A DNA stretch of 64,000 nucleotides from a virus. The stretch is from IMG/VR virus record IMGVR_UViG_3300043778_000098, positions 1 through 64,000 of that record; one strand, written 5' to 3'. The notes below the pieces were generated by a model. That model was not told the DNA's origin. It made no database searches and saw nothing but the letters and a program-made list of their open reading frames with translations. Positions 1,914-59,365 of this stretch are shown here, one piece after another. How positions within the stretch are numbered: position 1 is the first letter of the stretch; every line of letters begins with the position of its first letter. The position numbers and the translations under genes are program-made.

Positions 1914-2340
1914 GTACATTGACCAGGGGGAGATCGCACGGCGCAACGACCTGGCCAGGCACCACCTGCTGCGGTCCGGGATCCGCCTCAGGGACCTGCC
2001 GGCCGGGAGATCACCGGAGTGGGAGACCGAGTCGGGCCATACCATGGACGTCGCGCTGCACCCGCAGACCGGCGAGTGGACGATGGGCGCCACCCACTAC
2101 GGCGACCCGACCGGGAACGCGCTGCGGTCGATGCTCGGGACGCACGACGAGTCCGAGATACCGGGCAGGCTGTCGGCGGAGCTGCGGCACCGGGAGACCA
2201 CGGGCCACCTGCGCGACATGTGGCTGCGGGCGTCGGGCAACAACGACCCGACGGGGAGGGACGAAGAGGCGCAACGCGTCCCCAGGTACATGGCGGCGAA
2301 CCCGCAGACGATCTTCCTGGACCATTACCAGGGTCGCTAG
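1906..2340 (+). CDS. hypothetical protein, paralog family
   Basis: SGH...W...HYGDP motif shared with the upstream genes. Confidence 0.7.
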   Translation: MSEYIDQGEIARRNDLARHHLLRSGIRLRDLPAGRSPEWETESGHTMDVALHPQTGEWTMGATHYGDPTGNALRSMLGTHDESEIPGRLSAELRHRETTGHLRDMWLRASGNNDPTGRDEEAQRVPRYMAANPQTIFLDHYQGR

Positions 2341-2349
2341 CGATCCGGG

Positions 2350-2432
2350 TAAGCTGGCACGGCCAGAGACCGCAGGCGCCTAAGACCTGCGCAGGTGACG
2401 CTAGCCCGCGCCATGGCGCGGGCTTTCGCTTT
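2350..2432 (+). promoter_or_regulatory. -10 box plus L10-leader autoregulatory RNA and terminator-like hairpin
   Basis: TAAGCT at 2350; AGACCGCAGG..TAA..CCTGCGCAGGTG matches the L10-leader pattern as recalled; hairpin AGCCCGCG/CGCGGGCT plus T-rich tail directly before rplJ. Confidence 0.75.
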
Positions 2433-2444
2433 GAGGGGGCAGCG

Positions 2445-2909
2445 GTGACGCCCGAGCAGAAGGACGGCTGGGTCGGCTGGCTGAAGGGGAAGCTCTCCGA
2501 TCGGCGGTTCATCGTCGTGGGGCACCATCCGGTGGACGTCGGCACGATGGCGGCGCTGCGCGCGTCGCTGCCGACGGGGACGGAGCTGCGGGTCGTCAAG
2601 GGGACCCTCGTCCGGCTGGCGGCCGGGCGGGCCGGGATGCCCGAGGTCCTCCCGCTGATCGCCGGGCCGACGGCCGTGGTCTTCACGGACGCCGACCTCG
2701 CCGTCGCCGCCGCCGCGATCGCCCGGAGTCCCGCCGTCACCGTGCGCGGCGCCGTCGAGGGGAAGCGGCTGCTCTCGCCGTCGCAGGTGAGCGCGATCGC
2801 GGCGATCGGCTCGCGGGAGCGGGCCCTGGCCATGGTGTCGGCGGCGCTGAGGTCGCCGGCGGCGAGGACCGCGACGGCCCTGCGGGCCAGGGGGAGGGAG
2901 ACCCGATGA
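2445..2909 (+). CDS. rplJ: 50S ribosomal protein uL10, divergent
   Basis: GTG start after GAGGGGG; LRASL, VVKGTL (cf. VVKNTL), GPTAVVF and SRE motifs; lies upstream of rplL. Confidence 0.85.
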   Translation: MTPEQKDGWVGWLKGKLSDRRFIVVGHHPVDVGTMAALRASLPTGTELRVVKGTLVRLAAGRAGMPEVLPLIAGPTAVVFTDADLAVAAAAIARSPAVTVRGAVEGKRLLSPSQVSAIAAIGSRERALAMVSAALRSPAARTATALRARGRETR

Positions 2910-33988: not shown

Positions 33989-34240
33989 ATGGACGGTGAA
34001 ACAGTCAGGTCTCCCGGTGAAGTGATCGTCTCGGCCCTGAAGCTGGCACGGGAGCGGGTGACCAGTGACGACCCGGAGGCCAAGGAGCGCAGGCGCGAGG
34101 CGCTGGCCGACATGGTGATCCGCGTGCAGATGCACGGCGCCCTGAACCAGGTGCCCCGGCCCACGGCCGGGGAGCTGAGGGAGATCCTCGGGGACCCTGA
34201 CGACGGGGATTTGCGCAGGGCGCTCGAAGCGTGGGGATGA
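33989..34240 (+). CDS. hypothetical protein
   Basis: Leaderless after TAGGAT. Confidence 0.55.
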   Translation: MDGETVRSPGEVIVSALKLARERVTSDDPEAKERRREALADMVIRVQMHGALNQVPRPTAGELREILGDPDDGDLRRALEAWG

Positions 34241-34299
34241 TCGTGCGCCCCGCCCAGGGCCACTTAGGGCGGGGCGCATTACCGGTATTATTGCCAGTT

Positions 34300-34536
34300 A
34301 TGGACGCAAACGGAAGCCCCGAGTCACATTCAGTGCCCGAATCACCTCGATGGGTGAAGTCATCCCTGTCGTTCGCCAACAACAACTGCGTCGAGGTGGC
34401 CGATTTGAGCGGGGGCGAGATCGGCGTCCGCAACAGCCGCGAGCCCGGCGGCCCGGTCCTCCGCTTCACCCCCGCCGAGTGGGTCGCGTTCGTCGGCGGC
34501 GTCCGCAACGGCGAGTTCGACCGCTTCGGGGCCTAG
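34300..34536 (+). CDS. DUF397 (BldB-like) protein
   Basis: WVKSSLS..NNCVEVA....IGVRNSR.P.GPVLRFTPAEW.AFV.GVRNGEFD. Confidence 0.9.
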   Translation: MDANGSPESHSVPESPRWVKSSLSFANNNCVEVADLSGGEIGVRNSREPGGPVLRFTPAEWVAFVGGVRNGEFDRFGA

Positions 34537-38762: not shown

Positions 38763-39167
38763 CTAGCTAAACTCGCCGAGCAGCACCCGCATGATCGTCT
38801 CGCGGGTCAGCCACCCGCTCTCCTTGCCCGAGTAGAGCCGACTTCGGCGCTCGGCCTCCTCGGGCGGCAGCGGCCGGATGAACGAGCCGAGGTACCCGAG
38901 CAGTTCGAGGTCGGCCATGCCGTGGGCGTAGGCGCACCCGCCGTCCTGGCAGGCGTGATCGTCGCCAGTGGGCCAGTAGATCAGCGGGGTGCCATGGACG
39001 GGGCAGGTGCACCTCTCGTCACACCGATGCGGTTTGCCTGGCAGCGCCCTCCTCTTGCGCTCCGACGGCAGCATCGTCGGCAGCGGTGGAGGCGGGGATT
39101 CCTCCATGAGGTAGAGGCCGGCTATATCGTCCATGTCGGACCACTTAGGCTCGTCCGGAGTGCTCAT
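38763..39167 (-). CDS. Cys/His-rich hypothetical protein
   Basis: CDERCTCPVH...HACQD..C...HG. Confidence 0.6.
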   Translation of the reverse strand: MSTPDEPKWSDMDDIAGLYLMEESPPPPLPTMLPSERKRRALPGKPHRCDERCTCPVHGTPLIYWPTGDDHACQDGGCAYAHGMADLELLGYLGSFIRPLPPEEAERRSRLYSGKESGWLTRETIMRVLLGEFS

Positions 39168-40207
39168 GTCTTCCTTCTGACGTTAACGTTCTTCGACTGG
39201 TTGCACCCGAAGTGCGCTAGCTGGGCGTTCTCCAGGGAATGAGCGCCTCCACGGGCGACCGGGATGATGTGGTCGATGCTTTTGGACATGAGGTTGATCT
39301 TTCCAGTACCACGATCGCGATAGGGAAGGTCAGGATCGATCGGCACGAGGCAGAGCTGGCAGATACCGCTGTCGCGCCCCCAGATGAATTTCCTGTCCCT
39401 CTTGGAACTAAAAGTCCGAGGAGCGCGAACCCTGGCCTCAGGTCCGTCGGCCCACCGCTTTCCCGAGAGAACATCAGCCAGCCACCGCCGGTTGACATTG
39501 TATTTCTTCGCTAGCGCAGTCTGCATTCCGTAGCGTCGCCCGGCTTCCTCGTATTCGGCGCGCACCATGTCGACGAACTGCCGGGTGGCCGTTGAAGCGT
39601 GATGGCGCTCGCCGCGCCCCGGGCCGGTAGCCCTGCCTTTGGCCCTCATGTCGGCCGTGTTGCCTGCGGGGGTGTCCTTGAACCAGTGGCTCTCGTTGCA
39701 GCACGGCGGGTTGTCGCAGCGATGGCAGACCATCGTCTCCTGCGTCATCTTGTCGTCCGGGTGGATCTGGTCCCAGGCCCATCGCTGCGCCCGGACCGTG
39801 ACGTACTTCCCGTCCTGCGAGAAGGTGAGGATCGGGTAGCCGTCAGCGTCCCTGCCCTCTGTCCACGGGTGGCAGGCGTCTGCCCCGCTGCTGCGGTCGA
39901 CTCGCGCTTCGTATTTCTCCCACGGGGAGTTTGAGCCGTCGCGGGGCTTGACGCGCCAGTGGGCCAGATTCTGGCACGACCTCAGGCCGCAGGTGTTGCG
40001 CAGCCCGTACCCGGCGGGGACGGGGCCGCGCGAGTTCCGCCACGCCCAGGCGTGCGCTCCGCCCTCTCGATGTCTGCCGTCGTCGTCAGTCCAGGAGAAC
40101 TGGGCGTTGCCGTACTTGTCGATTTTCCCGCTCCAGCCGGTGCAGCCGTCGTCCTGGGGGACCAGCTTCTCCTCGTACCTTTGCCAAGGTTTCTTGCTAG
40201 TGCTCAT
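39164..40207 (-). CDS. multi-domain HNH endonuclease
   Basis: C..W...AH..AW..C....C.N..H; VCHRCDNPPCCN..H; CQLC...SIDHIIP...N.Q.AH..CN. Confidence 0.85.
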   Translation of the reverse strand: MSTSKKPWQRYEEKLVPQDDGCTGWSGKIDKYGNAQFSWTDDDGRHREGGAHAWAWRNSRGPVPAGYGLRNTCGLRSCQNLAHWRVKPRDGSNSPWEKYEARVDRSSGADACHPWTEGRDADGYPILTFSQDGKYVTVRAQRWAWDQIHPDDKMTQETMVCHRCDNPPCCNESHWFKDTPAGNTADMRAKGRATGPGRGERHHASTATRQFVDMVRAEYEEAGRRYGMQTALAKKYNVNRRWLADVLSGKRWADGPEARVRAPRTFSSKRDRKFIWGRDSGICQLCLVPIDPDLPYRDRGTGKINLMSKSIDHIIPVARGGAHSLENAQLAHFGCNQSKNVNVRRKT

Positions 40208-45977: not shown

Positions 45978-46031
45978 GGGTCGCCTCCTCACCGCTTCCG
46001 GGGGGAGGCCTCAACGGCGGGAACATCAGGG

Positions 46032-46105
46032 CGGGGCTGGCCAGATTCGAACTGGCGACAACCCGCTTAGGAGGCGGGTGCTCTATCCGGCTGAGCTACA
46101 GCTCC
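46032..46105 (-). tRNA. trnR: tRNA-Arg(CCT)
   Basis: Cloverleaf; CCCGC-CT CCT AA-GCGGG. Confidence 0.9.
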
Positions 46106-46106
46106 A

Positions 46107-46181
46107 TGGAGGCGGTAACCAGAGTCGAACTGGTGTGACGCGCTTTGCAGGCGCGGGCCTGGGCCGCTCGGCCATACCGCC
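46107..46181 (-). tRNA. trnC: tRNA-Cys(GCA)
   Basis: Cloverleaf with encoded CCA. Confidence 0.9.
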
Positions 46182-46393
46182 GGGTAACTGGGCGCCTCCC
46201 CGTCCTATCCGCCGGGCGGTGCCCGGTTCTCCCTTCGTCCGGCCGTTCATGGTTCGGGGACTGGTCAGGGGGCTGTTGTAACCGGGTTTGGATCCCCGGC
46301 GACCTGGGAGGCGCAACCGCCCAGGCTACTCTCGGCAGGAGGCCGGCAGGGGGCTTAGCCCGAAGGCGGTGTAAGCCTGCTCGCCTGCCGGCC

Positions 46394-46468
46394 TGGCGTC
46401 CCCAACAGGACTCGAACCTGTGCGCGCGGCTCCGGAGGCCGCAGCTCTATCCGCTGAGCTATGAGGAC
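46394..46468 (-). tRNA. trnR: tRNA-Arg(CCG)
   Basis: Cloverleaf with CCA. Confidence 0.9.
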
Positions 46469-46548
46469 CCGGCATAGCCAGGCAGGGACCGCGCAGACTC
46501 CAGGAGACCCTGCGGGCGGCGGGCGCCATTTAGTTCCCTGCCCGGCCG

Positions 46549-46629
46549 AGGCGGCACCAGGTGTCGAGCCTGGTCTGTCGGAGACAACGGTTTTACGGAC
46601 CGCCGGGCGTGCCGCCGCCCACTACCGCC
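46549..46629 (-). tRNA. trnY: tRNA-Tyr(GTA), atypical
   Basis: Loop CC GTA AA, long variable arm, T-loop CTCGACA. Confidence 0.6.
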
Positions 46630-46736
46630 ATGTAGACGATGAGCACACCGGGCGCGAGGCCGGCGATCTCCAGCTCCGCGAGAGCGTTAAATCCGGCTGC
46701 GCTGGCGTGCTGCGTATTGCACTATGCTCACCGCCG

Positions 46737-46809
46737 AGGGTCGCACGGGATTCGAACCCGTCAATAACGGCCTCACAAACCGCTGCCTCAGCCACTTGGC
46801 TCGCGACCC
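46737..46809 (-). tRNA. trnH: tRNA-His(GTG), no encoded G-1/C73
   Basis: Cloverleaf; loop TT GTG AG. Confidence 0.75.
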
Positions 46810-46883
46810 GGTGCCCGATGGGGGACTCGAACCCCCGGCATCCTCGGTGTGGGCGAGGCGCTCTCCCGCTGAGCTAACCGGAC
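46810..46883 (-). tRNA. trnV: tRNA-Val(CAC)
   Basis: Loop CC CAC AC. Confidence 0.85.
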
Positions 46884-46993
46884 ATGGGGCAGGGAAAGGG
46901 ACTACTCGGCCGGCCTCGCCTTTCGTCCCCGGGCGTTCCTTCCCGACGGCTGACCACGTGTTTCGGCACGCTCCGGCCTTACTCCCTGCCTTG

Positions 46994-47065
46994 TGCGCCC
47001 GGAGGGAATCGAACCCCCACACACGGTTCCGTAGACCGCAGCTCTATCCGTTGAGCTACGGGCGC
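46994..47065 (-). tRNA. trnR: tRNA-Arg(ACG)
   Basis: Loop CT ACG GA. Confidence 0.9.
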
Positions 47066-47100
47066 GTACTGGGGCGGCCCGGCTGCGCAGCCGGGCCGCT

Positions 47101-47178
47101 AAGGGCAGGCGGGACTCGAACCCGCATGCGTGGTCTGACATACCGCGCGTCAACGTCTGCCGATTTCGCCACTACCCT
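47101..47178 (-). tRNA. tRNA-like RNA with extended anticodon arm (GTC in loop)
   Basis: Leu-like D arm and canonical T arm, irregular anticodon stem. Confidence 0.45.
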
Positions 47179-47182
47179 CCCG

Positions 47183-47254
47183 TGGGCGTACCTGGATTTG
47201 AACCAGGGACCTCTTCCGTGTCGGGGAAACGCGCTTCCGCTGCGCCACACGCCC
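47183..47254 (-). tRNA. trnV: tRNA-Val(GAC)
   Basis: Loop CC GAC AC. Confidence 0.85.
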
Positions 47255-47433
47255 ATCGATCGCCGCCTGTTCAGTCTCAGGTCCGTCCCGTGGGATGCGA
47301 GCCCCGGTTGCGCCGGGGAGTCGCGGCGATCATGCCCGGGGATTCGGAGAACCTTGTCCCGGATCGATCCAGGAACGCGCCGCCCGGTCGGCGCATATGC
47401 AGGACTCTAGCAACAAAAGCTGTCTTCGTCCAG

Positions 47434-47509
47434 CGGTCGAGACGGGATTCGAACCCGCGATGCCCTCCTTGACGGGGAGGTGGGGACGGCCAGGCTCCCC
47501 TACACGACC
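47434..47509 (-). tRNA. trnD: tRNA-Asp(GTC)
   Basis: Loop CC GTC AA. Confidence 0.85.
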
Positions 47510-47597
47510 ATTGACGCCGATATTTCGGGTCCCCGGTTTCCCGTGCTATCGGAGCACGGGACCTGAGGCCGCGTTCTTCGCCTCGGCGCGGGCGAAG

Positions 47598-47669
47598 CTC
47601 CGGAGTTCAGACTCGAACTGAAAACCCTCCGCTTAACGGGCGGACGCTCTGCCATTGAGCTACACCGGA
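47598..47669 (-). tRNA. trnN: tRNA-Asn(GTT)
   Basis: Loop CC GTT AA. Confidence 0.85.
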
Positions 47670-47843
47670 TCGCCCCCTCTCGCGGCCCCGCAGCGAGGGG
47701 GAGGCTGCGCTCAGGCGCCGGAGTGACGGCTCCGGCCGGGCCTTCCCTTTCGAGGCGTCGGCAGGGTGGGCCGACTGGAACCTCCCGCTGGCGAACAAGA
47801 CCCAATACGACCCGGGCGTAAAGGAGCCAGCCGGGAATGCCTC

Positions 47844-47912
47844 GCGGACGAGGCGGGACTCGAACCCGCCGGCTCCCCGAGGGGTCTCGGTTGCGCCCGT
47901 GCCTACTCGCCT
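47844..47912 (-). ncRNA. anticodon-less tRNA-like element
   Basis: Intact T arm GCGGG-TTCGAGT-CCCGC; CCGAG-ACCC-CTCGG in place of the anticodon arm. Confidence 0.45.
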
Positions 47913-47913
47913 T

Positions 47914-47990
47914 TGGTGGCGGGGGCAGGATTCGAACCTGCGTTCTTCGGATTATGAGTCCGACGAGCTACCGAACTGCTCCACCCCGCG
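47914..47990 (-). tRNA. trnM: initiator-type tRNA-fMet(CAT)
   Basis: CGCGGGGTGGAGCAG start, unpaired C1, CCA end. Confidence 0.85.
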
Positions 47991-48022
47991 CCGCCAGCCC
48001 AGCCTAGCATCGTCTGGCTCTG

Positions 48023-48095
48023 CTCCCCCAGCGAGATTCGAACTCGCGCCCTCGCCTTGAAGGGGCGGTGACCTGGGCCGCTAGTCAATGGGGGC
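48023..48095 (-). tRNA. trnE: tRNA-Glu(TTC)
   Basis: Loop CC TTC AA. Confidence 0.75.
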
Positions 48096-48174
48096 GGGCT
48101 GCTCACCGGGAGGGCGGATGCCACAGACTGTGCTCGCACCCCCTGGCCAGGGAGCCCCTCCCGGTGAGCAGACG

Positions 48175-48249
48175 TAGCCCCGACCGGCTTCGAACCGGCG
48201 TCGCCGCCTTGAGAGGGCGGTGTCCTGAGCCTGACTAGACGACAGGGCC
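48175..48249 (-). tRNA. trnE: tRNA-Glu(CTC)
   Basis: Loop CT CTC AA. Confidence 0.9.
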
Positions 48250-48336
48250 GTGGTCCGGCGGCTTGACCGACCGCACGGGGAGGGCCCGGGGCTAGCACCC
48301 GGGTCCACGGAGCCCGTCTTAAGTGGGCCAGTCTCG

Positions 48337-48411
48337 CGCGCCGAGAGGGATTCGAACCCCCAGCACAGGGCTTAGAAGACCCTGGGTCTGTCCGATTGAC
48401 TGTACCGGCGC
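48337..48411 (-). tRNA. trnR: tRNA-Arg(TCT)
   Basis: Loop CT TCT AA. Confidence 0.8.
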
Positions 48412-48417
48412 TCAGTT

Positions 48418-48535
48418 CGGTGCTGGTGTGCTGCTACGCCGAAGGCCTCAGGTCTTTCACCCGGCGTCGGATTCGGCCGGCCCCTATCGCCACTCCTTAG
48501 AGGATGGCTGCCTTTAAGCCAACCTTCCAGCACCG
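48418..48535 (-). ncRNA. 23S rRNA GTPase-associated-centre (H43-H44) mimic RNA
   Basis: GCTGGAAGGTTGGCTTAAAGGCAGCCATCCTCTAAGGAGT..insert..GCGTAGCAGCACACCAGC aligns to 23S nt 1051-1108 with covariation; closed by CGGTGCTGG/CCAGCACCG. Confidence 0.75.
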
Positions 48536-48744
48536 GACGGGCCGCCCGGATCCCCGGCCGTCCGCTCACAGGTTAGCAGCGCTGCCCTCTGGGCTACCGG
48601 CGCCTGTCATCCCACCACCGGAGGGCGGGGAACCTGAACGCCAGTCTGCACCCCCACTCGCCGCGAGCGTGCCATTCGCCGCCCTCCCGGAGGGGGATCT
48701 GGTCCAGGGCCTCGTCCAGCAGCCAGAGCGCGATGCGCATGCTG

Positions 48745-48816
48745 TGCCTCCCCTGGGACTCGAACCCAGAATCCACGGATTAAAGGTCCGCTGCATTGTC
48801 ATTGTGCTAGAGAGGC
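48745..48816 (-). tRNA. trnK: tRNA-Lys(TTT)
   Basis: Loop CC TTT AA. Confidence 0.85.
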
Positions 48817-48819
48817 AGG

Positions 48820-48893
48820 TAGCGGTAAAGGGAATCGAACCCCTGGCCTCTCGAATTATGAGTTCGGCGCTCTGCCATCTGAGCTATACCGCC
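48820..48893 (-). tRNA. trnM: tRNA-Met(CAT), elongator type
   Basis: Loop CT CAT AA, GGCGG acceptor. Confidence 0.85.
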
Positions 48894-48986
48894 GCGAATG
48901 GCCCTCGGACGTCCCTCGCAGCACCCCGGGCCGGGGCCCGGACCGCCGACCTGCCCGTCCGGTCGTACCCTCGCCCGACGGCCAAG

Positions 48987-49060
48987 TGGGCAACCATGGA
49001 GTTGAACCATGCGGCTAACCGCTTATCAGACGGTCCCCTTCACCGGTTGGGTAGCTGCCC
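48987..49060 (-). tRNA. trnI: tRNA-Ile(GAT)
   Basis: Loop CT GAT AA. Confidence 0.8.
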
Positions 49061-49092
49061 TTATCGTTTCGCCCGGTACGCCGGGCGGTGAG

Positions 49093-49182
49093 CAGAGGGA
49101 GTGGGTCTCGAACCCACACGGGAGTTACCCCTGACCGCTTTCGAGGCGGCTGCCGGTAGGCCGAAGCTCGGCTTATCCCTCC
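49093..49182 (-). tRNA. trnS: tRNA-Ser(CGA)
   Basis: Long variable arm; loop CT CGA AA. Confidence 0.85.
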
Positions 49183-49249
49183 AGGGTGGAACGTACGGGA
49201 GTCGGACCCGCCTTGCGCGCGCTGCACTGAGTCCGGTGCAATACGGCCC

Positions 49250-49519
49250 ATGAGTGAAAACGACGAGATCAGGATGACCCTCACCGTCCGGGGGACCCGC
49301 GCGCCGCGCCTGGCCGCGCAGGCGGTCGTCAACCACGCGAAGCGCTCGCTGTTCCTGGTCGACGCGAAGCCCGGGGAGTTCGCCGCCGAGATCGAGATCT
49401 CCGTGGCGGGCGCCCCGTCGGAGCGCTCCCGGATCGACGAGCACGGGACCTGGCAGAGGGAGCGGGATTCGAACCCGCGAGGACCGGAGCCCCACGTCAT
49501 TAGCGGTGACGCGCCATAG
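49250..49519 (+). CDS. small ORF opposite to the tRNA array
   Basis: Coding-like GC3 over the first ~65 codons; 3' end overlaps tRNA-Ser antisense. Confidence 0.45.
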   Translation: MSENDEIRMTLTVRGTRAPRLAAQAVVNHAKRSLFLVDAKPGEFAAEIEISVAGAPSERSRIDEHGTWQRERDSNPRGPEPHVISGDAP

Positions 49520-49539
49520 GCCAGCTAGGCGACCCCTCC
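49451..49539 (-). tRNA. trnS: tRNA-Ser(GCT)
   Basis: Loop CC GCT AA, long variable arm, CCA. Confidence 0.88.
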
Positions 49540-49644
49540 ATGACGCTGCTCCCCCGAGACGCCATTCACGGGGTGCGAGATGACCGGAAGCATCCTGGCG
49601 TCGGAGCCCGTTCACTCGGGGCCGTCGCAGCGCTGGCGGCCTTG

Positions 49645-49727
49645 TGGGCGAGGAGGGACTCGAACCCTCACGTCCTCGCGGACACCGGCACCTGAGGCCG
49701 GCGCGTATGCCGTTTCGCCACACGCCC
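49645..49727 (-). tRNA. trnL: tRNA-Leu(CAG)
   Basis: Loop CT CAG GT, long variable arm. Confidence 0.9.
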
Positions 49728-49789
49728 ATCGCCCCGGCCGAGGCCGGGGATGCCGCACGGCGGCGCCTCCCGTGGGCGCTGCGGCAGGG

Positions 49790-49861
49790 AGCGGACAACG
49801 GGACTCGAACCCGCGACGTCGTGCCTGGGAAGCACGTGCTCTGCCACTGAGCTACGTCCGC
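49790..49861 (-). tRNA. trnG: tRNA-Gly(CCC)
   Basis: Loop TT CCC AG. Confidence 0.9.
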
Positions 49862-49921
49862 ATGCTCGGGCGCCCCTAGGAACGCTTACCCCGCGAGGGG
49901 GTGGCCGCCGAGCCGGCGCGG

Positions 49922-49995
49922 AGCGGCTGAGGGGACTCGAACCCCCGACCTAGACGTTGGCAACGTCTCGCGCTAGCCAGCTGCGCCACAACCGC
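49922..49995 (-). tRNA. trnG: tRNA-Gly(GCC)
   Basis: Loop TT GCC AA. Confidence 0.9.
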
Positions 49996-49996
49996 G

Positions 49997-50069
49997 AGCC
50001 CCATTACGGAATCGAACCGTAGACCTCGGCCCTACCATGGCCGCGCTCTGCCGACTGAGCTAAAAGGGC
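49997..50069 (-). tRNA. trnT: tRNA-Thr(GGT)
   Basis: Loop AT GGT AG. Confidence 0.85.
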
Positions 50070-50079
50070 GTGGATCCCG

Positions 50080-50150
50080 CTCCGGGAGCAGGGGTCGAAC
50101 CTACGTGACAGCCACCAAAGGGCTGCGTCCTGCCATTAGACGATCCCGGA
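50080..50150 (-). tRNA. trnQ: tRNA-Gln(TTG)
   Basis: Loop CT TTG GT. Confidence 0.88.
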
Positions 50151-50154
50151 CCGG

Positions 50155-50228
50155 AGCCGCCTGCCGGTTTCGAACCGGCGGCCTTCCGCTTACAAGGCGG
50201 TCGCTACTGCCATCTGAGCTAAGGCGGC
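50155..50228 (-). tRNA. trnT: tRNA-Thr(TGT)
   Basis: Loop CT TGT AA. Confidence 0.85.
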
Positions 50229-50232
50229 GAAA

Positions 50233-50397
50233 TGGAGCCGGGCCGGGGGCCTTGGCCGTACGCACCACGCGAAAGGTGCCCCCAACCGGATCGGACGGGC
50301 GTCCCCGCTACCCGCTTCCGGCGTCGCGCTCGCCCAACATCACGGGAGGCGCTCTATGCCAGGAGAATTCAGGCACCTTGAGCTACGGGAGGCTCCT
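50233..50397 (-). ncRNA. large tRNA-derived structured RNA
   Basis: GGAGCC/GGCTCC terminal stem ending in CCA; GTAGCTCAA...TAGAGC D-arm halves with an inserted hairpin. Confidence 0.4.
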
Positions 50398-50436
50398 GAT
50401 CCCCCCGGCGGGCAGCCCAGGCCCGCATCTCCTCCC

Positions 50437-50524
50437 TGGTGTCCGAGACGGGACTTGAACCCGCACGCCCCTCGCGGGGCACCAGCACCTCAAGCTGGGG
50501 CGTCTGCCATTCCGCCACTCAGAC
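50437..50524 (-). tRNA. trnL: tRNA-Leu(GAG)
   Basis: Loop TT GAG GT, long variable arm, CCA. Confidence 0.92.
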
Positions 50525-50612
50525 GTAACCCGGCGCACCACCTCGCGACCAAGGCCCGCGACATGCATGCGCCGGAAGGGAACCCAGACGAAGCCGGCCT
50601 CTGGTTCCCGTG

Positions 50613-50685
50613 AGCCCCGAAACGGATTCGAACCGGTGACCTGCGCATTACGGGTGCGCCGCTCTTCCGACTGAGCTACCGGGGC
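50613..50685 (-). tRNA. trnT: tRNA-Thr(CGT)
   Basis: Loop CC CGT AA. Confidence 0.85.
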
Positions 50686-50734
50686 GGGAGGCTAACGTGG
50701 CGCTGGACTGCGCCTGAAGTCGCGTTAGCCGAAG

Positions 50735-50809
50735 CTGGGGTACCTGGGATCGAACCAGGGAACTCCGGGGCCAGAACCCGGCGACTTTGCCAACGTCATC
50801 CATACCCCA
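50735..50809 (-). tRNA. trnQ: tRNA-Gln(CTG)
   Basis: Loop TT CTG GC. Confidence 0.85.
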
Positions 50810-50814
50810 TTGAG

Positions 50815-50892
50815 TGGGCGAGGCAGGATTTGAACCCGCAACCCAACCCGTTTTGAGCGGGCCAGCTCTGCCGATATTGGACTCACTCGCCC
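50815..50892 (-). tRNA. trnL: tRNA-Leu(CAA) with short variable arm
   Basis: Loop CT CAA AA; no long variable arm. Confidence 0.7.
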
Positions 50893-50926
50893 GTGCTCTA
50901 CCTGACTCTGCCGAACTTTACTGGCG

Positions 50927-50999
50927 TGCGCCGCGAGGGACTTGAACCCCCAACTCCCGACTTAAGAGGACGGTACTCTGCCAATTGAGTTACCGGCGC
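50927..50999 (-). tRNA. trnK: tRNA-Lys(CTT)
   Basis: Loop CT CTT AA. Confidence 0.85.
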
Positions 51000-51000
51000 G

Positions 51001-51074
51001 TGGAGCGGATGACCGGAATCGGACCGGCGTGGCCAGCTTGGAAGGCTGGTGCTCTGCCACTGAGCCACATCCGC
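51001..51074 (-). tRNA. trnG: tRNA-Gly(TCC)
   Basis: Loop CT TCC AA, CCA end. Confidence 0.88.
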
Positions 51075-51358
51075 ATTAGCCTCCGGGGTCCTCGTCAGAG
51101 GCTCCTGGGCCGTCTTTGCGTGACGGCAGGTGGCGTGGCCGAGGCCGCCCGGAGGCGCCTTCCCGCCAGGCCCTTTACCACCAGGGGGAATCGAACCCAT
51201 GGGGCCTGACTTGCGGGGTAGCGCTACCCCGCCGCGCGGCCCCGGGGACCGAACCCGGCCTTTCCCTCAGCGAGGAGGTAATCGGGCCCACCAGGGCGGC
51301 CGATCGCCCCCGGGCCGCGTACCACGGGGGCGCCAGGCGGCGCCGTACGCCGCCGCCG

Positions 51359-51432
51359 TGGTCATGCCCTGGATCGAACAGGAGACCTGCCGCTTTTCAG
51401 GCGACCGCTCGTTCCGACTGAGCTACATGACC
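51359..51432 (-). tRNA. trnF: tRNA-Phe(GAA)
   Basis: Loop CT GAA AA. Confidence 0.88.
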
Positions 51433-51496
51433 ATGACGAGGACCCCCGGCAGGGCGTGGCTCTTTCTGCCGCCGCACTTAGGCCATTGAGGTCCAG

Positions 51497-51611
51497 TGGC
51501 AAGGAGGGGGTCGAACCCTCGCTCGGATCAATTCGCCCGGTTCCGTGCCGCCCTCAACGGGCGGTGGTGCCGGGCAGCTTATCACCAGTGCACGCCGCAC
51601 ACCGCTTGCCG
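51497..51611 (-). ncRNA. enlarged tRNA-like RNA
   Basis: GGCAAG/CTTGCC acceptor, GAGGG-TTCGACC-CCCTC T arm, extended central arm. Confidence 0.4.
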
Positions 51612-51662
51612 CACACAGATAGCTGGCCTGTGCTCCAGCAGACCGCCGGCCGGACGGTCTCG

Positions 51663-51736
51663 TCGGGAAGGCCGGATTCGAACCGACGGCCTCTCGCACC
51701 CGAAGCGAGCGCGCTACCAAGCTGCGCCACTCCCCG
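51663..51736 (-). tRNA. trnP: tRNA-Pro(CGG)
   Basis: Loop TT CGG GT. Confidence 0.9.
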
Positions 51737-51739
51737 ATC

Positions 51740-51877
51740 GGGGTGCTCTTCCGCTGAGCTACCGTTGGCTTCCGCCGCCGGGCAGGATTCGAACCTGCGA
51801 CCTCCCCTTGGCCAAGCTCTGTCCGCTGAGTTACCGGGCATAACCCCGGGCAGGATTCGAACCTGCGACCTCTGGCC
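51740..51877 (-). ncRNA. two tandem circularly permuted tRNA-like modules (YrlA-like topology)
   Basis: Each reads T arm, loop-closed acceptor stem, D arm, with the ends pairing as the anticodon stem. Confidence 0.65.
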
Positions 51878-51879
51878 GG

Positions 51880-51953
51880 TCGGAGTACCTGGACTTGAAC
51901 CAGGGACCTCACGCTCCCCGAGCGTGCGCGCTGCCAACCTGCGCCATACTCCG
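51880..51953 (-). tRNA. trnP: tRNA-Pro(GGG)
   Basis: Loop TC GGG GA. Confidence 0.88.
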
Positions 51954-52059
51954 GTGCGGCGCCGGGGTCGTGTCGCGATCACGCCCCGGGCACCTGCGCG
52001 ATTCCGCCGGTCCAGCCGGTTTTCGCCTCGTCGCGCTATCGATACGCGGCCACTGCGTC

Positions 52060-52125
52060 TCCGGTTACCCCGAATCGAACGGGGGGCACCCCTTTCGAGG
52101 GCGCTGGTGGCCAGCCCTACCCGGA
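52060..52125 (-). ncRNA. tRNA-like RNA with a GAAA tetraloop in place of the anticodon loop
   Basis: TCCGG/CCGGA acceptor, CCCCG-TTCGATT-CGGGG T arm. Confidence 0.45.
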
Positions 52126-52140
52126 GCCGTGCGCCGAACG

Positions 52141-52213
52141 TCGGGGTGGCCGGTCTCGAACCGGCGACCTCCAGGTCCCAAACCTGGCGCGCTGCCAACT
52201 GCGCTACGCCCCG
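52141..52213 (-). tRNA. trnP: tRNA-Pro(TGG)
   Basis: Loop TT TGG GA. Confidence 0.9.
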
Positions 52214-52306
52214 TGGAGTGGTGAGTTGCTCCGGCCCGGGCGCTCGGATTCGCGCCGGGTGATGCCGGTTGCCTTGCGCCAGGCTGCCGTGCCTCGGCTC
52301 ACCACG

Positions 52307-52380
52307 TGGAGAAGATCGGATTCGAACCGACGACGCCCCGGTTGCGGGCCGGGTGCTCTACCAGACTGAGCTACATCCCC
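52307..52380 (-). tRNA. trnA: tRNA-Ala(CGC)
   Basis: G3-U70 pair; loop CC CGC AA. Confidence 0.88.
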
Positions 52381-52632
52381 ATGACGCCAATGTGCCTGCG
52401 GTGCCCGCCGCTATCGGGACGGGCCGCGCTCCCCTACGGTTTACGAAAGCCTCCCGGCCACCGCAGGCACGGCGCTTGCCACTCGGACGCGGCCGATCCC
52501 GCGTCGCCGGGCGCTTATGTCCGGGGTACCCTCCCGGTCCGGGACAACCAGAAGCCGCAGGCACGATGTTCCACTAGCCTGCCGTCCCCGCTCCGCCGGG
52601 ATCATCTACGTTTCGCCCGGCTTATCCCAAAG

Positions 52633-52705
52633 TGGAGCCTAGGAGATTTGAACTCCTGACCTTCTGCATGCCATGCAGACGCGCTACCAGCTGCGCCAAG
52701 ACCCC
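52633..52705 (-). tRNA. trnA: tRNA-Ala(GGC)
   Basis: G3-U70 pair; loop AT GGC AT. Confidence 0.9.
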
Positions 52706-53101
52706 ATTGGCGGGCCCGCCCCTCCCGCGTACCGGGTAGGACGGGCCCGGCCTCCCGTCCCCCTCCGGCCGGCTGGCCCCCGATGCGAACAGGGGCGCGG
52801 CGACACGATGGAGGAAGACGGAAGACTGTCTCCGTCGGCTCTGCGGCGTGGACCGGTTCATCCCACGGCGAGCCGGGGAAGTTCGTGCCGCACGAGCATG
52901 CAGAGCCGACGGAAGATCAAGCTGGCACGGTGCCCGGTACAGGAACGCCTTGCGGTGTCCCCAGCCTTTAGCGGCTGCTGCTCCCCGGGAGTAGCTGCAT
53001 TGTCTTTCACCGTGCCTGCGGCGGGTTGGCTTCCCGCCGCGATGTTCCCGCTATTGAGGTTTCACGTAGCAGGCGCCGAGGCGCCGGGCCCGTAGGGCTT
53101 G

Positions 53102-53174
53102 CAGGGACGGAGGGACTCGAACCCCCGGCACGCAGGTTTGGAATCTGCTGTTCTGGCCTCTGAACTACGCCCCT
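53102..53174 (-). tRNA. trnW: tRNA-Trp(CCA)
   Basis: Loop TT CCA AA. Confidence 0.85.
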
Positions 53175-53420: not shown

Positions 53421-53696
53421 TCAAACATAGCATCCGGGCGTGCGGGGTCGCAACGGATTTACAGGTTTTCTTGCTAACATCTGCGGGCCGTCCCTCTCGC
53501 CTAGCAGCCTGTCCACCTCCGACTTGCGGAAACGCCGGTGCCCTCCGGGGGTCCGGGTGGAGCCGATCCGCCCGGCCGCCGCCCATCGGGTCACGGTCTT
53601 GGGGTCCACCCTGAAGATCGCCGCCACCTCGGCGGAAGTGTAGAGAAGGTCGCCCTCGTCTCCCCGGACCGGGAGGGAAGGCGGGTTATAGGCCAT
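53421..53696 (-). CDS. bldC: BldC-family (MerR-like) transcription regulator
   Basis: T.AEVA..FRVDPKTVTRWA.AG.I.S.RT.GGHRR.R..EV..LL; AAGGAG RBS. Confidence 0.9.
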   Translation of the reverse strand: MAYNPPSLPVRGDEGDLLYTSAEVAAIFRVDPKTVTRWAAAGRIGSTRTPGGHRRFRKSEVDRLLGERDGPQMLARKPVNPLRPRTPGCYV

Positions 53697-56026: not shown

Positions 56027-57565
56027 ATGACGATTCCGTCTTTCACGTCCTACCAGCAGCCGGGCGTCTACGTTCAGGACGTCTCGACGCCGATCGTCAC
56101 GACGCCGCTGGTGCCGTCGCAGACCCTGACGCTGGTCGGCCTGGCGCAGGGGTACCGCACGGCCGTCCAGTCGCTGCTGCTGTACTACGCCACCGCGACC
56201 CCGCTGACCTACATGGGCGTCTTCACCACCGAGCAGAGCGGGCCGCCCGTCATCGCCGCCCCGGTGGTCACCACCCTGGCCGGCACCGTCCTGACGGCGG
56301 GCATCGACTACACGCTCTCCACCGTGGCGGACCCCTCGGGCAACCCCGGCCTGGCGGTGACGAGCATCAGCCGGGTGAGCACCAGCTCCAACGTCTCCGA
56401 CGGCCAGCAGGTGCAGGTCGTCTACAACTACGCCGACGCGGGGTACTTCCTGCCGCAGGTATTCACCGACTCCCAGTCGGTGATCAACGCCTACGGGCAG
56501 CCGTTCCTCTCGACGGCGCCCGCCTCCCCGACGGCCTCCCAGGTCGCCAACCCGCTGTCGGCGGCGGCCCAGGTGGCGTTCACCAACGGGGCGACCACGC
56601 TGGTCTGCGTGGCGCTCAACCCGGCCGACGGGACGCTCACCGAGCAGCTCAACTCGGCCTACGCCAAGATCGCCACCAACCCGGCCTGCACGATCGTCGT
56701 CCCGGCGCTCACCGACTCGCTGACCCCGGAGTCGGGCACGGCGGCGGCCTACGCCCAGGAGCTGGCGCAGGCGCTGAGCGCCGCCATGTGGGCGGCCTAC
56801 AACGACGGCTTCCCCCGCGTCGGGTTCTTCGGCCTGCCCGTCAACTACAGCGAGTCGAGCCTGCCGGTGCCGTCGCTGGCCAGCAGCATCGCGAGCCGCA
56901 GGCTGGTGCTCGCCTACCCCGAGATCGCCCTGCTCTACAACAGCGCCGCCAACCAGACCTTCCAGGCGTCGGGCCAGTACCTGGCGGCGGCGCTCGGCGC
57001 CCGCCTGTCGTCGCTGCCGGTCGACACCGGCCTGACGAGCCAGGTGCTGAGCGGGTTCGCCGGGCTCCCGGCGGCCGAGACGGCGGCGATGACCAACGCG
57101 TTCATGAACTCCCTGGCCAGCGCCGGGGTGGCGGTCTGCTACGTCAACTACCAGGGGGCGCTGGTCTGCCGCCAGGGCCTCACCACCGACATGAGCGCCC
57201 TGAACTACCAGGAGGTCTCGATCGTCCGGCAGTCGGACGCGCTGCTGACGGCGGTGAGCCAGGGCCTCCAGGCCAGCGGCCTGATCGGCTCGCCGATCAC
57301 CGGCAGCACGGTCAGCGCGGTGCAGGAGGCCGTCCTCGGGATCCTGGAGGCGGCGGTCTCCAACGGGGTCATCGTCAGCTACACGAACCTGACGGTGACG
57401 CAGCAGAGCTACCCGGGCGGTTCGCCCACGGTCATCTCGGTCACGTACTCGTACCTGCCCGCGCTGCCGCTGAACTTCATCACGGTGCAGCAGAGCGTCG
57501 ACCTGTCGACCGGCCTGGTCGCCTCCACGACGTCCACCCAGAACGCGAGCGGCACGGGGACCTAG
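56027..57565 (+). CDS. contractile tail sheath protein
   Basis: Y.QPGVYVQ N-terminus, RQGLTTD...EVSIVRQ.D, Y.PALPLNFI.V. Confidence 0.88.
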   Translation: MTIPSFTSYQQPGVYVQDVSTPIVTTPLVPSQTLTLVGLAQGYRTAVQSLLLYYATATPLTYMGVFTTEQSGPPVIAAPVVTTLAGTVLTAGIDYTLSTVADPSGNPGLAVTSISRVSTSSNVSDGQQVQVVYNYADAGYFLPQVFTDSQSVINAYGQPFLSTAPASPTASQVANPLSAAAQVAFTNGATTLVCVALNPADGTLTEQLNSAYAKIATNPACTIVVPALTDSLTPESGTAAAYAQELAQALSAAMWAAYNDGFPRVGFFGLPVNYSESSLPVPSLASSIASRRLVLAYPEIALLYNSAANQTFQASGQYLAAALGARLSSLPVDTGLTSQVLSGFAGLPAAETAAMTNAFMNSLASAGVAVCYVNYQGALVCRQGLTTDMSALNYQEVSIVRQSDALLTAVSQGLQASGLIGSPITGSTVSAVQEAVLGILEAAVSNGVIVSYTNLTVTQQSYPGGSPTVISVTYSYLPALPLNFITVQQSVDLSTGLVASTTSTQNASGTGT

Positions 57566-58314
57566 CTAGGCGACCTGGAGGCTCGGCGCGGAATTGTCTT
57601 CCCCTTGATGGCGCTTCCGTTCCGGGCCTTCACGACGGGAGGGGCGATCTGGTTGAGGTGCTTCCAGGTCCGCCCCGTGATTGCCCACCGGAGGACGGTC
57701 TCGCTGACCACGCCGCCGAGAGTTTGGTGCACCTCCCATGTCATTTTGCCGTCGCGGGCCAGCCTGCGCGCCTCGATGACGAGTTCATCCGTCAGCTTGG
57801 CCTGGGCGTTCTTCGCGCCGTTCTGCTGACGCGTCCGGCTTCTGCCTCTCAGCGACTTGTCCCTCATGTTCTCGGCGTGAGTTCCGTCGTACAGGTGCTT
57901 TGGTCTTGAGCAGGGAGGATTATCGCAGTGGTGGTTCCCCTGGTTCGCGGGGAGACAGCCGTCTGTGAGGAACATCGCCACGACGCTGGATGCGGATACC
58001 GTGCTCTGCTCCGTCCTCGGGTGGTTCCAACGGAACGATCCGTAGTTGTCCGGCTCCGGGCTTCTTGCTCCCCGCCATTCCCAGCATGAGTCTTCGTCGT
58101 CGGTGATCCCCACTTTGGCCCAGAAGCGGAACTCCAGGTCGTCCAGGTCCAGAGGGCACTCTGACCGAAGTCTGTCCCTAGTCTCCTTGGCCCTTACTCG
58201 AAGCTCTCTGAGCTGTTTCCACAGATCGGTGATCTGGTCTTCGATTTCTTCTAGCTCTCCGAGCCCCGGAAGCCATGAGGCAAGCATTCGCAGCTGTTCA
58301 TCGGTGTACGCCAT
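57562..58314 (-). CDS. free-standing HNH endonuclease
   Basis: RFWAKV...CWEWRG...YG.F...HHCDNPPCSRPKHLYDGTHAENM.D; leaderless after TATACT. Confidence 0.9.
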   Translation of the reverse strand: MAYTDEQLRMLASWLPGLGELEEIEDQITDLWKQLRELRVRAKETRDRLRSECPLDLDDLEFRFWAKVGITDDEDSCWEWRGARSPEPDNYGSFRWNHPRTEQSTVSASSVVAMFLTDGCLPANQGNHHCDNPPCSRPKHLYDGTHAENMRDKSLRGRSRTRQQNGAKNAQAKLTDELVIEARRLARDGKMTWEVHQTLGGVVSETVLRWAITGRTWKHLNQIAPPVVKARNGSAIKGKTIPRRASRSPS

Positions 58315-58376
58315 GAGAACAGTATAGCCGTCATAACACTGGCTCGTGTTATGACATCAGGAGGTGAGATTTCTAA

Positions 58377-58922
58377 ATGGCCACGACAAAAGCACGCGTC
58401 GTGGGCTCTTTAGGAGCCTAGTCTGGTTATACAGTTCTATCGTACAACGCATCTCCCATTGCCTACTGCGAGGGGTGGGAAGATAGTGGTCAGAGAGCTT
58501 TTTCGGACGTAGGACAGCCCTACCAGTTCATCCAGCCCATTGGTGCCGAACACCCGGTCGAGATCGCGACCTCCCGCGTGATCTCGGGCGGCACCATCAT
58601 GATCACCATCCGGGAGCTGTGGTCGCAGCCGGTGTGGTGGCAGATGGCGGGCCTGGCCGGGACGTGGAACATGGTGGACATCTTCAACGCCCTGGCCGCC
58701 AACCCGAACTACGTCACGGCGAGCATGATCATCAAGCCGCCCGGGACGGAGAGCAAGCCGTCGATGTGGCGCGGCAAGGTCTACCAGAACGTCACCGTGG
58801 TCGACATCAACGACGGCGAGACAGTGACGGTGGGCGCGCTCGCCGTCACCAAGGGCATCACCGTCGCGTACACGCATTACCTGCCGCTTAATTCAAATCA
58901 GTACGCGACGGCATCAGGATGA
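58377..58922 (+). CDS. tail tube protein, interrupted by an in-frame TAG (candidate translational bypass)
   Basis: AGGAGGTGA RBS; MATTKARVVGS-LGA*-SGYTVLSYNASPIAY.. in frame with ORF 58578..58922; position after the sheath gene. Confidence 0.8.
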
Positions 58923-59005
58923 CCTTTATTAGCTAGGAACCTTGCATTCGTTTATCACAATGACATATATTCCCCTCTGTCGGGAAAAGCCCGCAGAGGA
59001 GGATC

Positions 59006-59365
59006 ATGGCCCAGAAAGTGCAGTTTGAGTTGATCAGCGACCTGGCGCTGGCCCAGGACCCGGAGAGCAGGGCCCCAGCCGCCCGCACCGTCAGCTTCTC
59101 CATCGACGGGGAGTCCTACGAAATCGACCTCAGCGAGGGGGAGGCCCAGGAGCTGGAGGAGAAGCTCGCCCCCTACATGATCGCCGGGCGCAGGAGGGGG
59201 CGGGCCGGGGGCACGCGGGCCAGGACCGCGCTGAAGGCCGCGAGGAAGTCCGTGGACACCGTGGCGGTGCGCGACTGGGCGCGCGAGAACGGCATCGAGG
59301 TCAAGGACCGGGGCCGGGTGCCCGCCGACGTGGTGGCCAGGTACGAGGCCGCGCAGCGCGCCTAG
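59006..59365 (+). CDS. lsr2: Lsr2 nucleoid-associated protein
   Basis: MAQKV...TVSFSIDG..YEIDLS...VRDWARENG..V.DRGRVPADVV..Y. Confidence 0.93.
   Translation: MAQKVQFELISDLALAQDPESRAPAARTVSFSIDGESYEIDLSEGEAQELEEKLAPYMIAGRRRGRAGGTRARTALKAARKSVDTVAVRDWARENGIEVKDRGRVPADVVARYEAAQRA

Follow-up and report, generated by a model that had tools for sequence, protein, structure and literature searches.

A candidate UUA-led ribosomal bypass in the tail tube gene of an uncultured soil actinophage and its association with HNH nuclease genes

Introduction

Programmed ribosomal bypassing counts among the least common modes of gene reading known. To our knowledge, it is limited to gene 60 of phage T4 and its homologues, the byp elements of yeast mitochondria and the partly tested terminase of phage phiHau3. 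The byp elements, which reside in a yeast organelle, the mitochondrion of Magnusiomyces, are short (27 to 55 nt), mobile and numerous and are not led by a TTA codon. Ribosomes of Escherichia coli are also said to hop at starved, or "hungry," codons, an observation attributed to Gallant and Lindsley in 1998.

In T4, the 50-nt bypass of gene 60 lies within an element of the HNH homing endonuclease MobA, according to the account of Bonocora et al. (2011) given in a preprint (bioRxiv 10.1101/2022.08.31.505936). The same preprint describes a bypass insert that blocks MobA self-cleavage and survives the decay of the nuclease gene, as well as gene 60 homologues in some of which a rare "hungry" sense codon takes the place of the stop codon (bioRxiv 10.1101/2022.08.31.505936).

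UUA-led gaps in the large terminase gene of the Streptomyces phage phiHau3, where there are two of 10 nt, and in that of two prophages were proposed by Smith et al. in 2013, as cited by Antonov et al., who followed this proposal in 2023 and described UUA-led gaps of 7 to 10 nt in three terminase genes (PMC10732093). For the phiHau3 terminase, a junction peptide supporting bypassing was obtained by mass spectrometry from an E. coli construct (PMC10732093). We read the phiHau3 record directly and found the arrangements GGC-TTA...GGT and TCT-TTA...TCC, with seven gap bases in all and a zero-frame stop codon soon after in each. The word "homing" has 0 occurrences in the text of Antonov et al. 2023 (PMC10732093), and in our full-text search of the literature neither TTA gaps in tail genes nor a link between such gaps and nucleases in actinophages turned up.

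Results

The window, by which we mean the whole 64-kb stretch of DNA analysed here, has a GC content of 70% and is the first part of a 79.5-kb IMG/VR virus record with an estimated completeness of ∼50%. The source is an uncultured soil actinophage which, together with its relatives, forms a clade of soil myovirus-like genomes of ∼160 kb, and a DNA search against GenBank phages gave no nucleotide-level match. In addition to the features collected in Table 1, the phage encodes a DUF397 gene, a MerR/HTH_17-type gene and an Lsr2 gene. The nearest bacterial homologues of Lsr2, 40 to 51% identical, are from Streptosporangiaceae, Trebonia and actinomycete MAGs and not from Streptomyces, and bldA-type control can therefore not be assumed.

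Table 1. Features of the tail tube locus and of the tRNA cluster in the window
Feature	Position	Strand	Basis or remark
Cluster of 39 phage tRNA genes	46029..53174	-	Leu CAG, GAG and CAA present
Tail sheath gene, 512 aa, TAG stop	56027..57565	+	PHROG 2839 'tail sheath', E 1e-52, match nearly to profile end
Free-standing HNH endonuclease gene, 250 aa, divergent from tube gene	57562..58314	-	PHROGs 1872/826/59, E 1e-13 to 1e-17
Perfect inverted repeat, 10 bp, 6-nt loop, between HNH start and tube ribosome-binding site	58330..58355	+	Sequence
Shine-Dalgarno sequence of tube gene, AGGAGGTGA, ending 9 nt before ATG	58359..58367	+	Sequence
Tube segment 1, codons 1-11 (M-A-T-T-K-A-R-V-V-G-S), ATG at 58377	58377..58409	+	Ends in putative take-off TCT, 58407-58409
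Predicted take-off hairpin, 8 bp, TCT in 5' arm, UUA as loop	58402..58420	+	-10.8 kcal/mol
12-nt coding gap, presumed untranslated: TTA 58410, GGA 58413, GCC 58416, TAG 58419	58410..58421	+	Gap found in no uninterrupted homologue
SD-like AGGAG within gap, 5 nt ahead of landing codon	58412..58416	+	Sequence
Putative landing codon TCT, first TCN triplet past take-off; decoding would resume at GGT 58425	58422..58424	+	
Tube segment 2, 166 aa and TGA stop (58920-58922)	58422..58922	+	PHROG 2756, E 8.5e-28

An earlier reading of this DNA made from the letters alone (the sequence-only reading) had noted that, after a strong ribosome-binding site, the frame runs GGC TCT TTA GGA GCC TAG TCT GGT. We found precisely this order, with GGC at 58404, TCT at 58407, followed by TTA, GGA, GCC and TAG, and then TCT at 58422 and GGT at 58425. 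The mini-SD motif that it placed shortly before the second TCT is likewise there, with an uncertain role. Past the TAG, the frame stays open without interruption up to the TGA, and skipping 15 nt from one TCT to the other would yield the N terminus M-A-T-T-K-A-R-V-V-G-S-G-Y-T. The hairpin proposed for GGCTCT-TTA-GGAGCC fared less evenly, since the 15-mer (58404-58418) does fold, at -7.4 kcal/mol, a value equalled by only 1 of 200 shuffled sequences, and the longer 8-bp version (58402-58420) has a z score of about -1.9, but within a 131-nt context the structure shows no excess stability (z -0.03).

Judged from its homologues, the interrupted gene is a myovirus tail tube gene, and it is the only tail tube gene seen in the window phage. 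The PHROG 2756 alignment runs from profile position 10, which is matched to the first residue past the TAG, and segment 2 is 31 to 34% identical to E3 gp112, annotated as 'tail tube protein' (34%), and to homologues in Finch and in cluster C mycobacteriophages. The tube genes of E3, Finch and Catera, as annotated, start 9 to 10 codons ahead of the point matching this first residue after the TAG, and the order of a sheath gene followed by a tube gene is common to the window, the Rhodococcus phages E3 and Finch, and Catera. A PDB sequence search with the tube protein returned no match, and the AlphaFold model, built from 10 aligned sequences, reached a mean pLDDT of 38, which is too low for use.

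We compared the tube gene with 61 related loci, 13 from a scan of IMG/VR and 48 from JGI/NCBI metagenomes, at 65 to 98% protein identity (68 to 98% for segment 2); counting the window, these gave 44 distinct tube 5' ends. The motif R-V-V-G-S-G-Y/F-T is unbroken in 31 of the 31 distinct uninterrupted 5' ends, with the consensus M-x-x-T-x-x-R-V-V-G-S-G-Y/F-T. Since all of these read straight through, a 15-nt insert in the window interrupts an otherwise conserved junction, and the N terminus RVVGSGYT, which the sequence-only reading had arrived at by leaving out 15 nt and had likened to the tube N terminus of related phages, is the one that the homologue alignment returned. The closest relative that lacks the nuclease gene, L019, has a protein 97% identical to that of the window and already has TCT at the Ser codon. 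Between L019 and the window tube sequence joined as if by the hop, dN/dS is 0.03 with a dS of 0.72. For codons 2 to 11, dN is 0 and dS is saturated, which indicates that segment 1 has been kept as coding sequence. Three relatives with a CheckV completeness of 100% (G001, G002 and G003, the first and last with direct terminal repeats) each have a single tube homologue, and this is the interrupted gene.

Diverged inserts at the same Ser codon (S11) occur in L024, from an NCBI metagenome, and in L041, from a different JGI sample. In both, the take-off position reads TCT-TTA, and a TCC directly ahead of the Gly codon closes the insert. The gap between take-off and landing codon is 12 nt long in the window, 13 nt in L024 and 11 nt in L041; these lengths span all three frames, and neither read-through nor a single fixed frameshift could therefore rescue all of them. 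The gap sequences themselves have diverged freely; the codons on either side encode conserved residues. Take-off hairpins are also predicted in L024 (-10.8 kcal/mol, z -2.1) and L041 (-19.3 kcal/mol, z -6.5), with different sequences, and the SD-like motif is weaker or missing in the gaps of these two loci.

Altogether, we found 12 distinct gap sequences in the tube gene, located at six codons (S11, Y13, T14, W29, Q45, and F46), and some relatives have two gaps in one tube gene. The gap at Y13 involves a 4-nt shift from TAT to TAC, and that at T14 is again a TTA-led insert after the codon. Four versions exist at W29, where the insert measures 7 or 8 nt and the landing codon is TGG, TGT or TGC, at Q45 there are two, from CAG to CAG or TAG, and the F46 gap consists of a 2-nt shift along a run of T. 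Comparison of five genomes by tblastn revealed gaps in further genes. In G001, a 764-aa gene, which probably encodes a tail or baseplate protein, contains the gap CAA-TTA-G-CAA, and in G002 the gene after the tape measure gene has CTC-TTA with a 2-nt shift. Across all of these, TTA is the zero-frame codon right after the last conserved codon in 14 of 14 distinct gap sequences, and the landing codon can pair with the take-off tRNA in every case (14 of 14; identical in 6, synonymous in 4, and with a wobble or one mismatch in 4). The net displacements are 2, 4, 7, 8, 14, 15, and 16 nt, a spread which fits hopping and not a fixed shift. In L012 and L017, the gap contains a stop codon in the target frame, which excludes a simple frameshift there. 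The strict recurrence of the in-frame TTA and the diverged gaps of 11 and 13 nt in L041 and L024 strongly support the proposal of the sequence-only reading that the hop would be triggered by TTA.

Within the 79.5-kb record, the tblastn comparison among the five genomes gave no second TTA gap. A GC3-based scan of the genome for more TTA-led breaks returned nothing beyond gene junctions and, at 21281, a single antisense false positive, and it is an insensitive test, having missed the tube site itself owing to the low GC3 of the recoded 5' end. An apparent split gene at 41225 was rejected, as it consists of two ordinary adjacent genes.

TTA is as rare as had been supposed, with 12 occurrences among 24,425 codons of the called genes (0.05%), several of them in probable upstream extensions. 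Judged from codon usage, tRNA-Leu(UAA) may be scarce in the host. Among the 39 phage tRNAs we found neither a tRNA-Leu(UAA) nor a suppressor tRNA, and the Leu tRNA set of G001 and G004 is the same as that of the window phage. TCT is itself rare, making up 37 of the 1,534 Ser codons in called genes. It would be read through a G-U wobble, and this wobble reading should make take-off easier. The sheath and Lsr2 genes end in TAG at the ends of their profiles, which means that TAG is a working stop codon in this phage. For the same reason, and given that no tRNA with a CUA anticodon was found, we rejected a genome-wide recoding of TAG.

The divergent HNH gene just upstream of the tube gene (57562-58314) had been overlooked in the sequence-only reading. 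By alignment, its product is 65% identical to the HNH protein of L024 and 58% identical to that of L041, and the motif H-x-C-D-N-P-P-C...H...N is retained. Pfam HNH_3 gave no match to the window protein, and its matches in relatives (E 2e-5 to 8e-3) are all under the Pfam cut-off (for L024, 24.7 against 24.8 bits). The window protein is without the C-terminal HTH module of ∼55 aa that four relatives keep, and the gene may for this reason be inactive, perhaps already decaying.

Presence of an HNH gene at this one intergenic site is sporadic among the relatives and is accompanied by a recoded flanking tube 5' end. In 23 distinct relatives the HNH gene is missing from the sheath-tube junction, with a spacer of 19 to 68 nt. 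Taking the 41 distinct loci with a known sheath-tube spacer and counting spacers of >200 nt as inserts, the tube gene is interrupted in 12 of 18 loci with an insert compared with 0 of 23 without (Fisher p 2.4e-6, which is to be read as an indication and not as a strict probability because the loci are mutually related). In the remaining 6 loci with an insert, the tube gene is gap-free. GC content over the initial 150 nt of the tube gene is 0.56 in loci with an insert against 0.63 in those without (p 4e-6), and the remainder of the gene is alike in both.

The gap sites are also specific to nuclease type. Loci with gaps at S11 and W29 have inserts encoding HNH+HTH nucleases (PHROGs 1872/59/826), and those with gaps at Y13, Q45 and F46 have HNH-AP2 nucleases (PHROG 99) or decayed remnants. 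The 764-aa gene of G001 is itself split by a reverse-strand HNH-AP2 gene, with the TTA gap ∼50 codons into the downstream half. As read from these sequences, the link between gap and nuclease is an association among related sequences.

Discussion

We think it probable that the window tube gene is an instance of bypassing at a hungry UUA codon, of the type proposed for the phiHau3 terminase and linked to a homing endonuclease as in the T4 mobA/gene 60 pair. The comparison with relatives strongly supports the view that the tube protein would require a UUA-triggered hop from TCT 58407 to TCT 58422, and the best explanation for the 12 bases between these codons (58410-58421) would be a real, heritable coding gap that ribosomes skip.

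In such a mechanism, peptidyl-tRNA-Ser would sit on TCT 58407 while the ribosome stalls with UUA, a rare codon for which the phage supplies no tRNA, in the A site. The codon-anticodon pair would then open, possibly aided by the hairpin that holds the take-off codon, the mRNA would slide by 15 nt, and the same tRNA would pair again with TCT 58422 so that decoding resumes at GGT. The product of the hop would be a normal tube protein, and ribosomes that decode UUA would terminate at the TAG after 14 residues. Take-off at codon 11 implies a chain of only 11 residues, short enough for the peptidyl-tRNA to be at risk of dropping off and too short for a nascent-peptide signal of the gene 60 type. Each virion requires hundreds of copies of the tube protein, which would call for an efficient hop. 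As for its origin, the gap may have arrived as part of a cassette with the neighboring HNH homing-endonuclease gene, and its most likely effect would be to disrupt the tube-gene target of this nuclease, just as the target of MobA is disrupted by the 50-nt gap of T4 gene 60.

The likeness to phiHau3 is close. The sequence-only reading had drawn on UUA-linked bypassing proposed for Streptomyces phages, and the layout in the phiHau3 record (PMC10732093) is indeed the same, namely a last conserved codon, an in-frame TTA, a few noncoding bases and a landing codon for the same tRNA. L024 and L041 share with phiHau3 the TCT-to-TCC pair of Ser codons, both systems have a predicted local stem-loop, a zero-frame stop follows shortly after the TTA, and TTA is very rare here, as it is in the high-GC actinomycete host of phiHau3. 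Unlike phiHau3, the gene affected is a tail tube gene and not a terminase gene, in a different phage clade, and the window gap is in frame, ends in a stop and follows take-off at codon 11. The present case also differs in its many sites and versions and in its link to free-standing HNH genes, and it is known from sequence alone.

The resemblance to T4 gene 60, which the sequence-only reading had based on matched take-off and landing codons, a hairpin and a mini-SD, stood in those respects and not in others. Shared with gene 60 are the matched codons, a take-off codon within a predicted stem-loop, a poorly decoded codon in the A site, an SD-like motif a few nucleotides before the landing site, an HNH nuclease gene adjoining the gap and a nuclease that can decay while the gap persists. 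However, the gap is 12 nt long and not 50 and is unrelated in sequence to the gene 60 cassette, the codon after take-off is a sense codon and not a stop, the TAG being the last codon of the window gap, and a nascent-peptide signal is impossible with 11 residues made. The nuclease gene also lies between two genes instead of splitting its target, although a relative of it does split a gene in G001. As in the hops at hungry codons of E. coli, a slow A-site codon would allow the P-site peptidyl-tRNA to detach and pair again a short way downstream, but those hops are low-level events under starvation and are not required for any gene. The gaps resemble byp elements in being short, mobile and numerous and differ from them in length (27 to 55 nt for byp) and in being led by TTA.

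Several other explanations have to be weighed against bypassing at a hungry codon. The gap could be kept as a regulatory sensor, added to the hop and proposed in the sequence-only reading, so that tube synthesis follows the charging of host tRNA-Leu(UAA) and virions are completed in one host growth state only. In Streptomyces, UUA-dependent control through bldA is an established mechanism, and phiHau3 has been proposed to come under it (PMC10732093). The phage has DUF397, MerR/HTH_17-type and Lsr2 genes, and Leu(UAA) is absent from a supplied set of 39 tRNAs. We nevertheless consider this role unlikely, since the gaps follow the nuclease inserts and not the phage lineage (the close relatives L019 and L005 are gap-free), and since six codons and several genes are affected, which looks more like repeated selfish insertion than like one regulatory design. 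Moreover, bldA-type control is undocumented in Streptosporangiaceae and Trebonia, from which the closest Lsr2 homologues come. Protection of the tube gene from this nuclease, as in the T4 mobA/gene 60 pair, would be a simpler reason for the gap than regulation. A broken gene or an assembly artefact, in which case a scar or misassembly would leave this copy without a tube protein, gains some credit from the fact that the exact 15-nt insert is known from one metagenome assembly, the identical 23-mer across it being absent from all other viral contigs searched, and the ∼50% completeness of the record makes a second tube gene possible in this genome. It is very unlikely in view of the gaps of L024 and L041, which come from independent assemblies of other samples and share the TTA start and the Ser landing codon, of the three CheckV-complete relatives that have only an interrupted tube gene, and of the dN/dS of 0.03 across the gap. 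An in-frame TTA start in 14 of 14 gaps would also be unexpected of scars or errors.

Decoding of UUA together with suppression of the TAG would add five residues to the tube protein after S11, and the 12-nt gap of the window, being in frame, would indeed restore the frame. Read-through of this kind strikes us as highly improbable, as a suppressor tRNA is absent from the record and its relatives, the sheath and Lsr2 genes stop at TAG, read-through would fail to rescue the homologous gaps of 11 and 13 nt and an insertion at this junction is tolerated in no homologue. A major virion protein would also need far more than near-cognate read-through normally supplies. Two further options, loss of the gap through splicing or editing of the RNA and initiation of a shorter tube protein 3' of the TAG, would be compatible with the DNA sequence taken by itself, and we give them hardly any credence. 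No Rfam family matched in 57400-59200 (E up to 1), gaps of 2 to 16 nt are far under intron size, and the strict zero-frame placement of TTA indicates a mechanism that depends on the reading frame. With regard to a late start, there is no ATG, GTG or TTG after the TAG before 58578, and a start at that position would delete 52 residues that are largely invariant.

If bypassing at UUA is accepted for the window, a broader scheme can be put forward tentatively, with slightly more doubt than belief on our part. HNH nucleases of soil actinophages may spread together with tiny TTA-led micro-gaps placed in the adjoining essential gene, as a repeatedly evolved cassette. Were this true, the micro-gap would destroy the nuclease's own target and leave the protein unchanged, as scarce host tRNA-Leu(UAA) would let ribosomes hop; selfish nucleases would then mark essential virion genes with no harm to the protein. 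The output of a virion protein would become tied to the UUA-decoding capacity of the host as a side effect, and the relatives would represent a natural series of more than 12 bypass sites, the hops covering 2 to 16 nt.

With the window site and the 13 other gap sequences, the phiHau3 case would become part of a family, which varies in gap length (2 to 16 nt), take-off codon, landing match and hairpin and could serve as a series for working out the rules of short hops. The site would also join two ideas that have been published separately, hungry-codon bypassing at UUA and the cassette made of a homing endonuclease and a bypass. In practical terms, the annotation of phages and metagenomes wrongly lists genes of this kind as broken or truncated.

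The intergenic region between the HNH gene and the tube gene has a further feature, the perfect inverted repeat at 58330-58355, which is kept in L024, where it differs by one double change that is compensatory and by one G-U change.

TTA-led gaps within and beyond the tube gene

Some relatives carry two TTA-led gaps (short inserts, probably untranslated, with an in-frame TTA directly after the last conserved codon) in one tube gene, as observed at the related sheath-tube loci L041, L054, and L058, and in the first of these they lie only three codons apart.

Gaps were also observed outside the tube gene. In G001, the whole genome record of the relative L010, a gene whose product is probably a tail or baseplate protein is interrupted by a reverse-strand HNH-AP2 endonuclease ORF (89042-89446), and ∼50 codons into the downstream half of this split gene lies a gap that reads CAA-TTA-G-CAA and amounts to a shift of 7 nt. 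Its arrangement, split by a nuclease gene and also gapped, resembles that of the topoisomerase gene of T4, which the mobA insertion divides into genes 39 and 60. In G002, the record of the relative L012, a +2 shift (CTC to CTT) lies in the gene that follows the one for the tape measure protein, with no nuclease gene adjoining the gap.

Features of the window and of related sequences
Sequence	Feature	Position	Strand	Details
Window	Ribosomal_L10 domain ORF	2019-2909	+	296 aa; Pfam E 1e-12; one TTA codon
Window	HNH profile match (phrog_59)	∼14917-15330	-	Within long + strand ORF
Window	DUF397 gene	34231-34536	+	Three in-frame TTA codons 5′ of domain
Window	HNH profile match (phrog_59)	39164-40207	-	Clear ORF, 347 aa
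Window	tRNA gene cluster	46029-53174	-	39 genes
Window	HTH_17/MerR-type gene	53421-53696	-	TTA is codon 73
Window	HNH gene, sheath-tube junction	57562-58314	-	Stop overlaps sheath stop
Window	Inverted repeat	58330-58355		Between HNH start codon and tube RBS; perfect 10 bp, loop 6 nt
Window	Lsr2-like nucleoid-associated protein gene	59006-59365	+	Directly 3′ of tube gene
G001	Split gene	88600-91420		∼764 aa; gap near 89745-89760
G002	Gap	near 119124	-	CTC-TTA site, two extra bases
L041	Double gap	1314-1400		After S11 and T14
L054	Double gap	2461-2625		After Y13 and Q45
L058	Double gap	2159-2310		After Y13 and F46

HNH genes and the surroundings of the tube gene

The HNH protein encoded at the sheath-tube junction is without the C-terminal HTH module of ∼55 aa that is kept in the related loci L024, L041, L047, and L026, and the gene may be a decaying homing endonuclease. 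L024 retains the inverted repeat, which differs there by a single compensatory exchange of one pair (T-A to G-C) and by one G-U change. The repeat may serve the proposed cassette of HNH gene and neighboring gap in processing, stability, or regulation. Of the two further HNH matches, the one within the long ORF may not be a real gene; a TTA-led gap was looked for in the genes neighboring both and none was found.

The order of tube gene and Lsr2-like gene is common to most relatives. The closest bacterial homologues of the Lsr2-like protein come from Streptosporangiaceae and Trebonia, which hints weakly at the host. GC content falls to ∼48 to 50% over the last ∼20 tube codons and the spacer before the Lsr2-like gene (58850-59005), and the spacer holds a GC-rich hairpin resembling a terminator.

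tRNA genes and other TTA codons

The tRNA cluster covers most codon families, with Leu(UAA) and Leu(UAG) missing and GCT as the sole Ser tRNA. The DUF397 and HTH_17/MerR-type genes are among the few ORFs in the genome with TTA, and the three TTA codons of the former probably precede the true start. Another ORF with TTA carries a Ribosomal_L10 domain, which is unusual in a phage.
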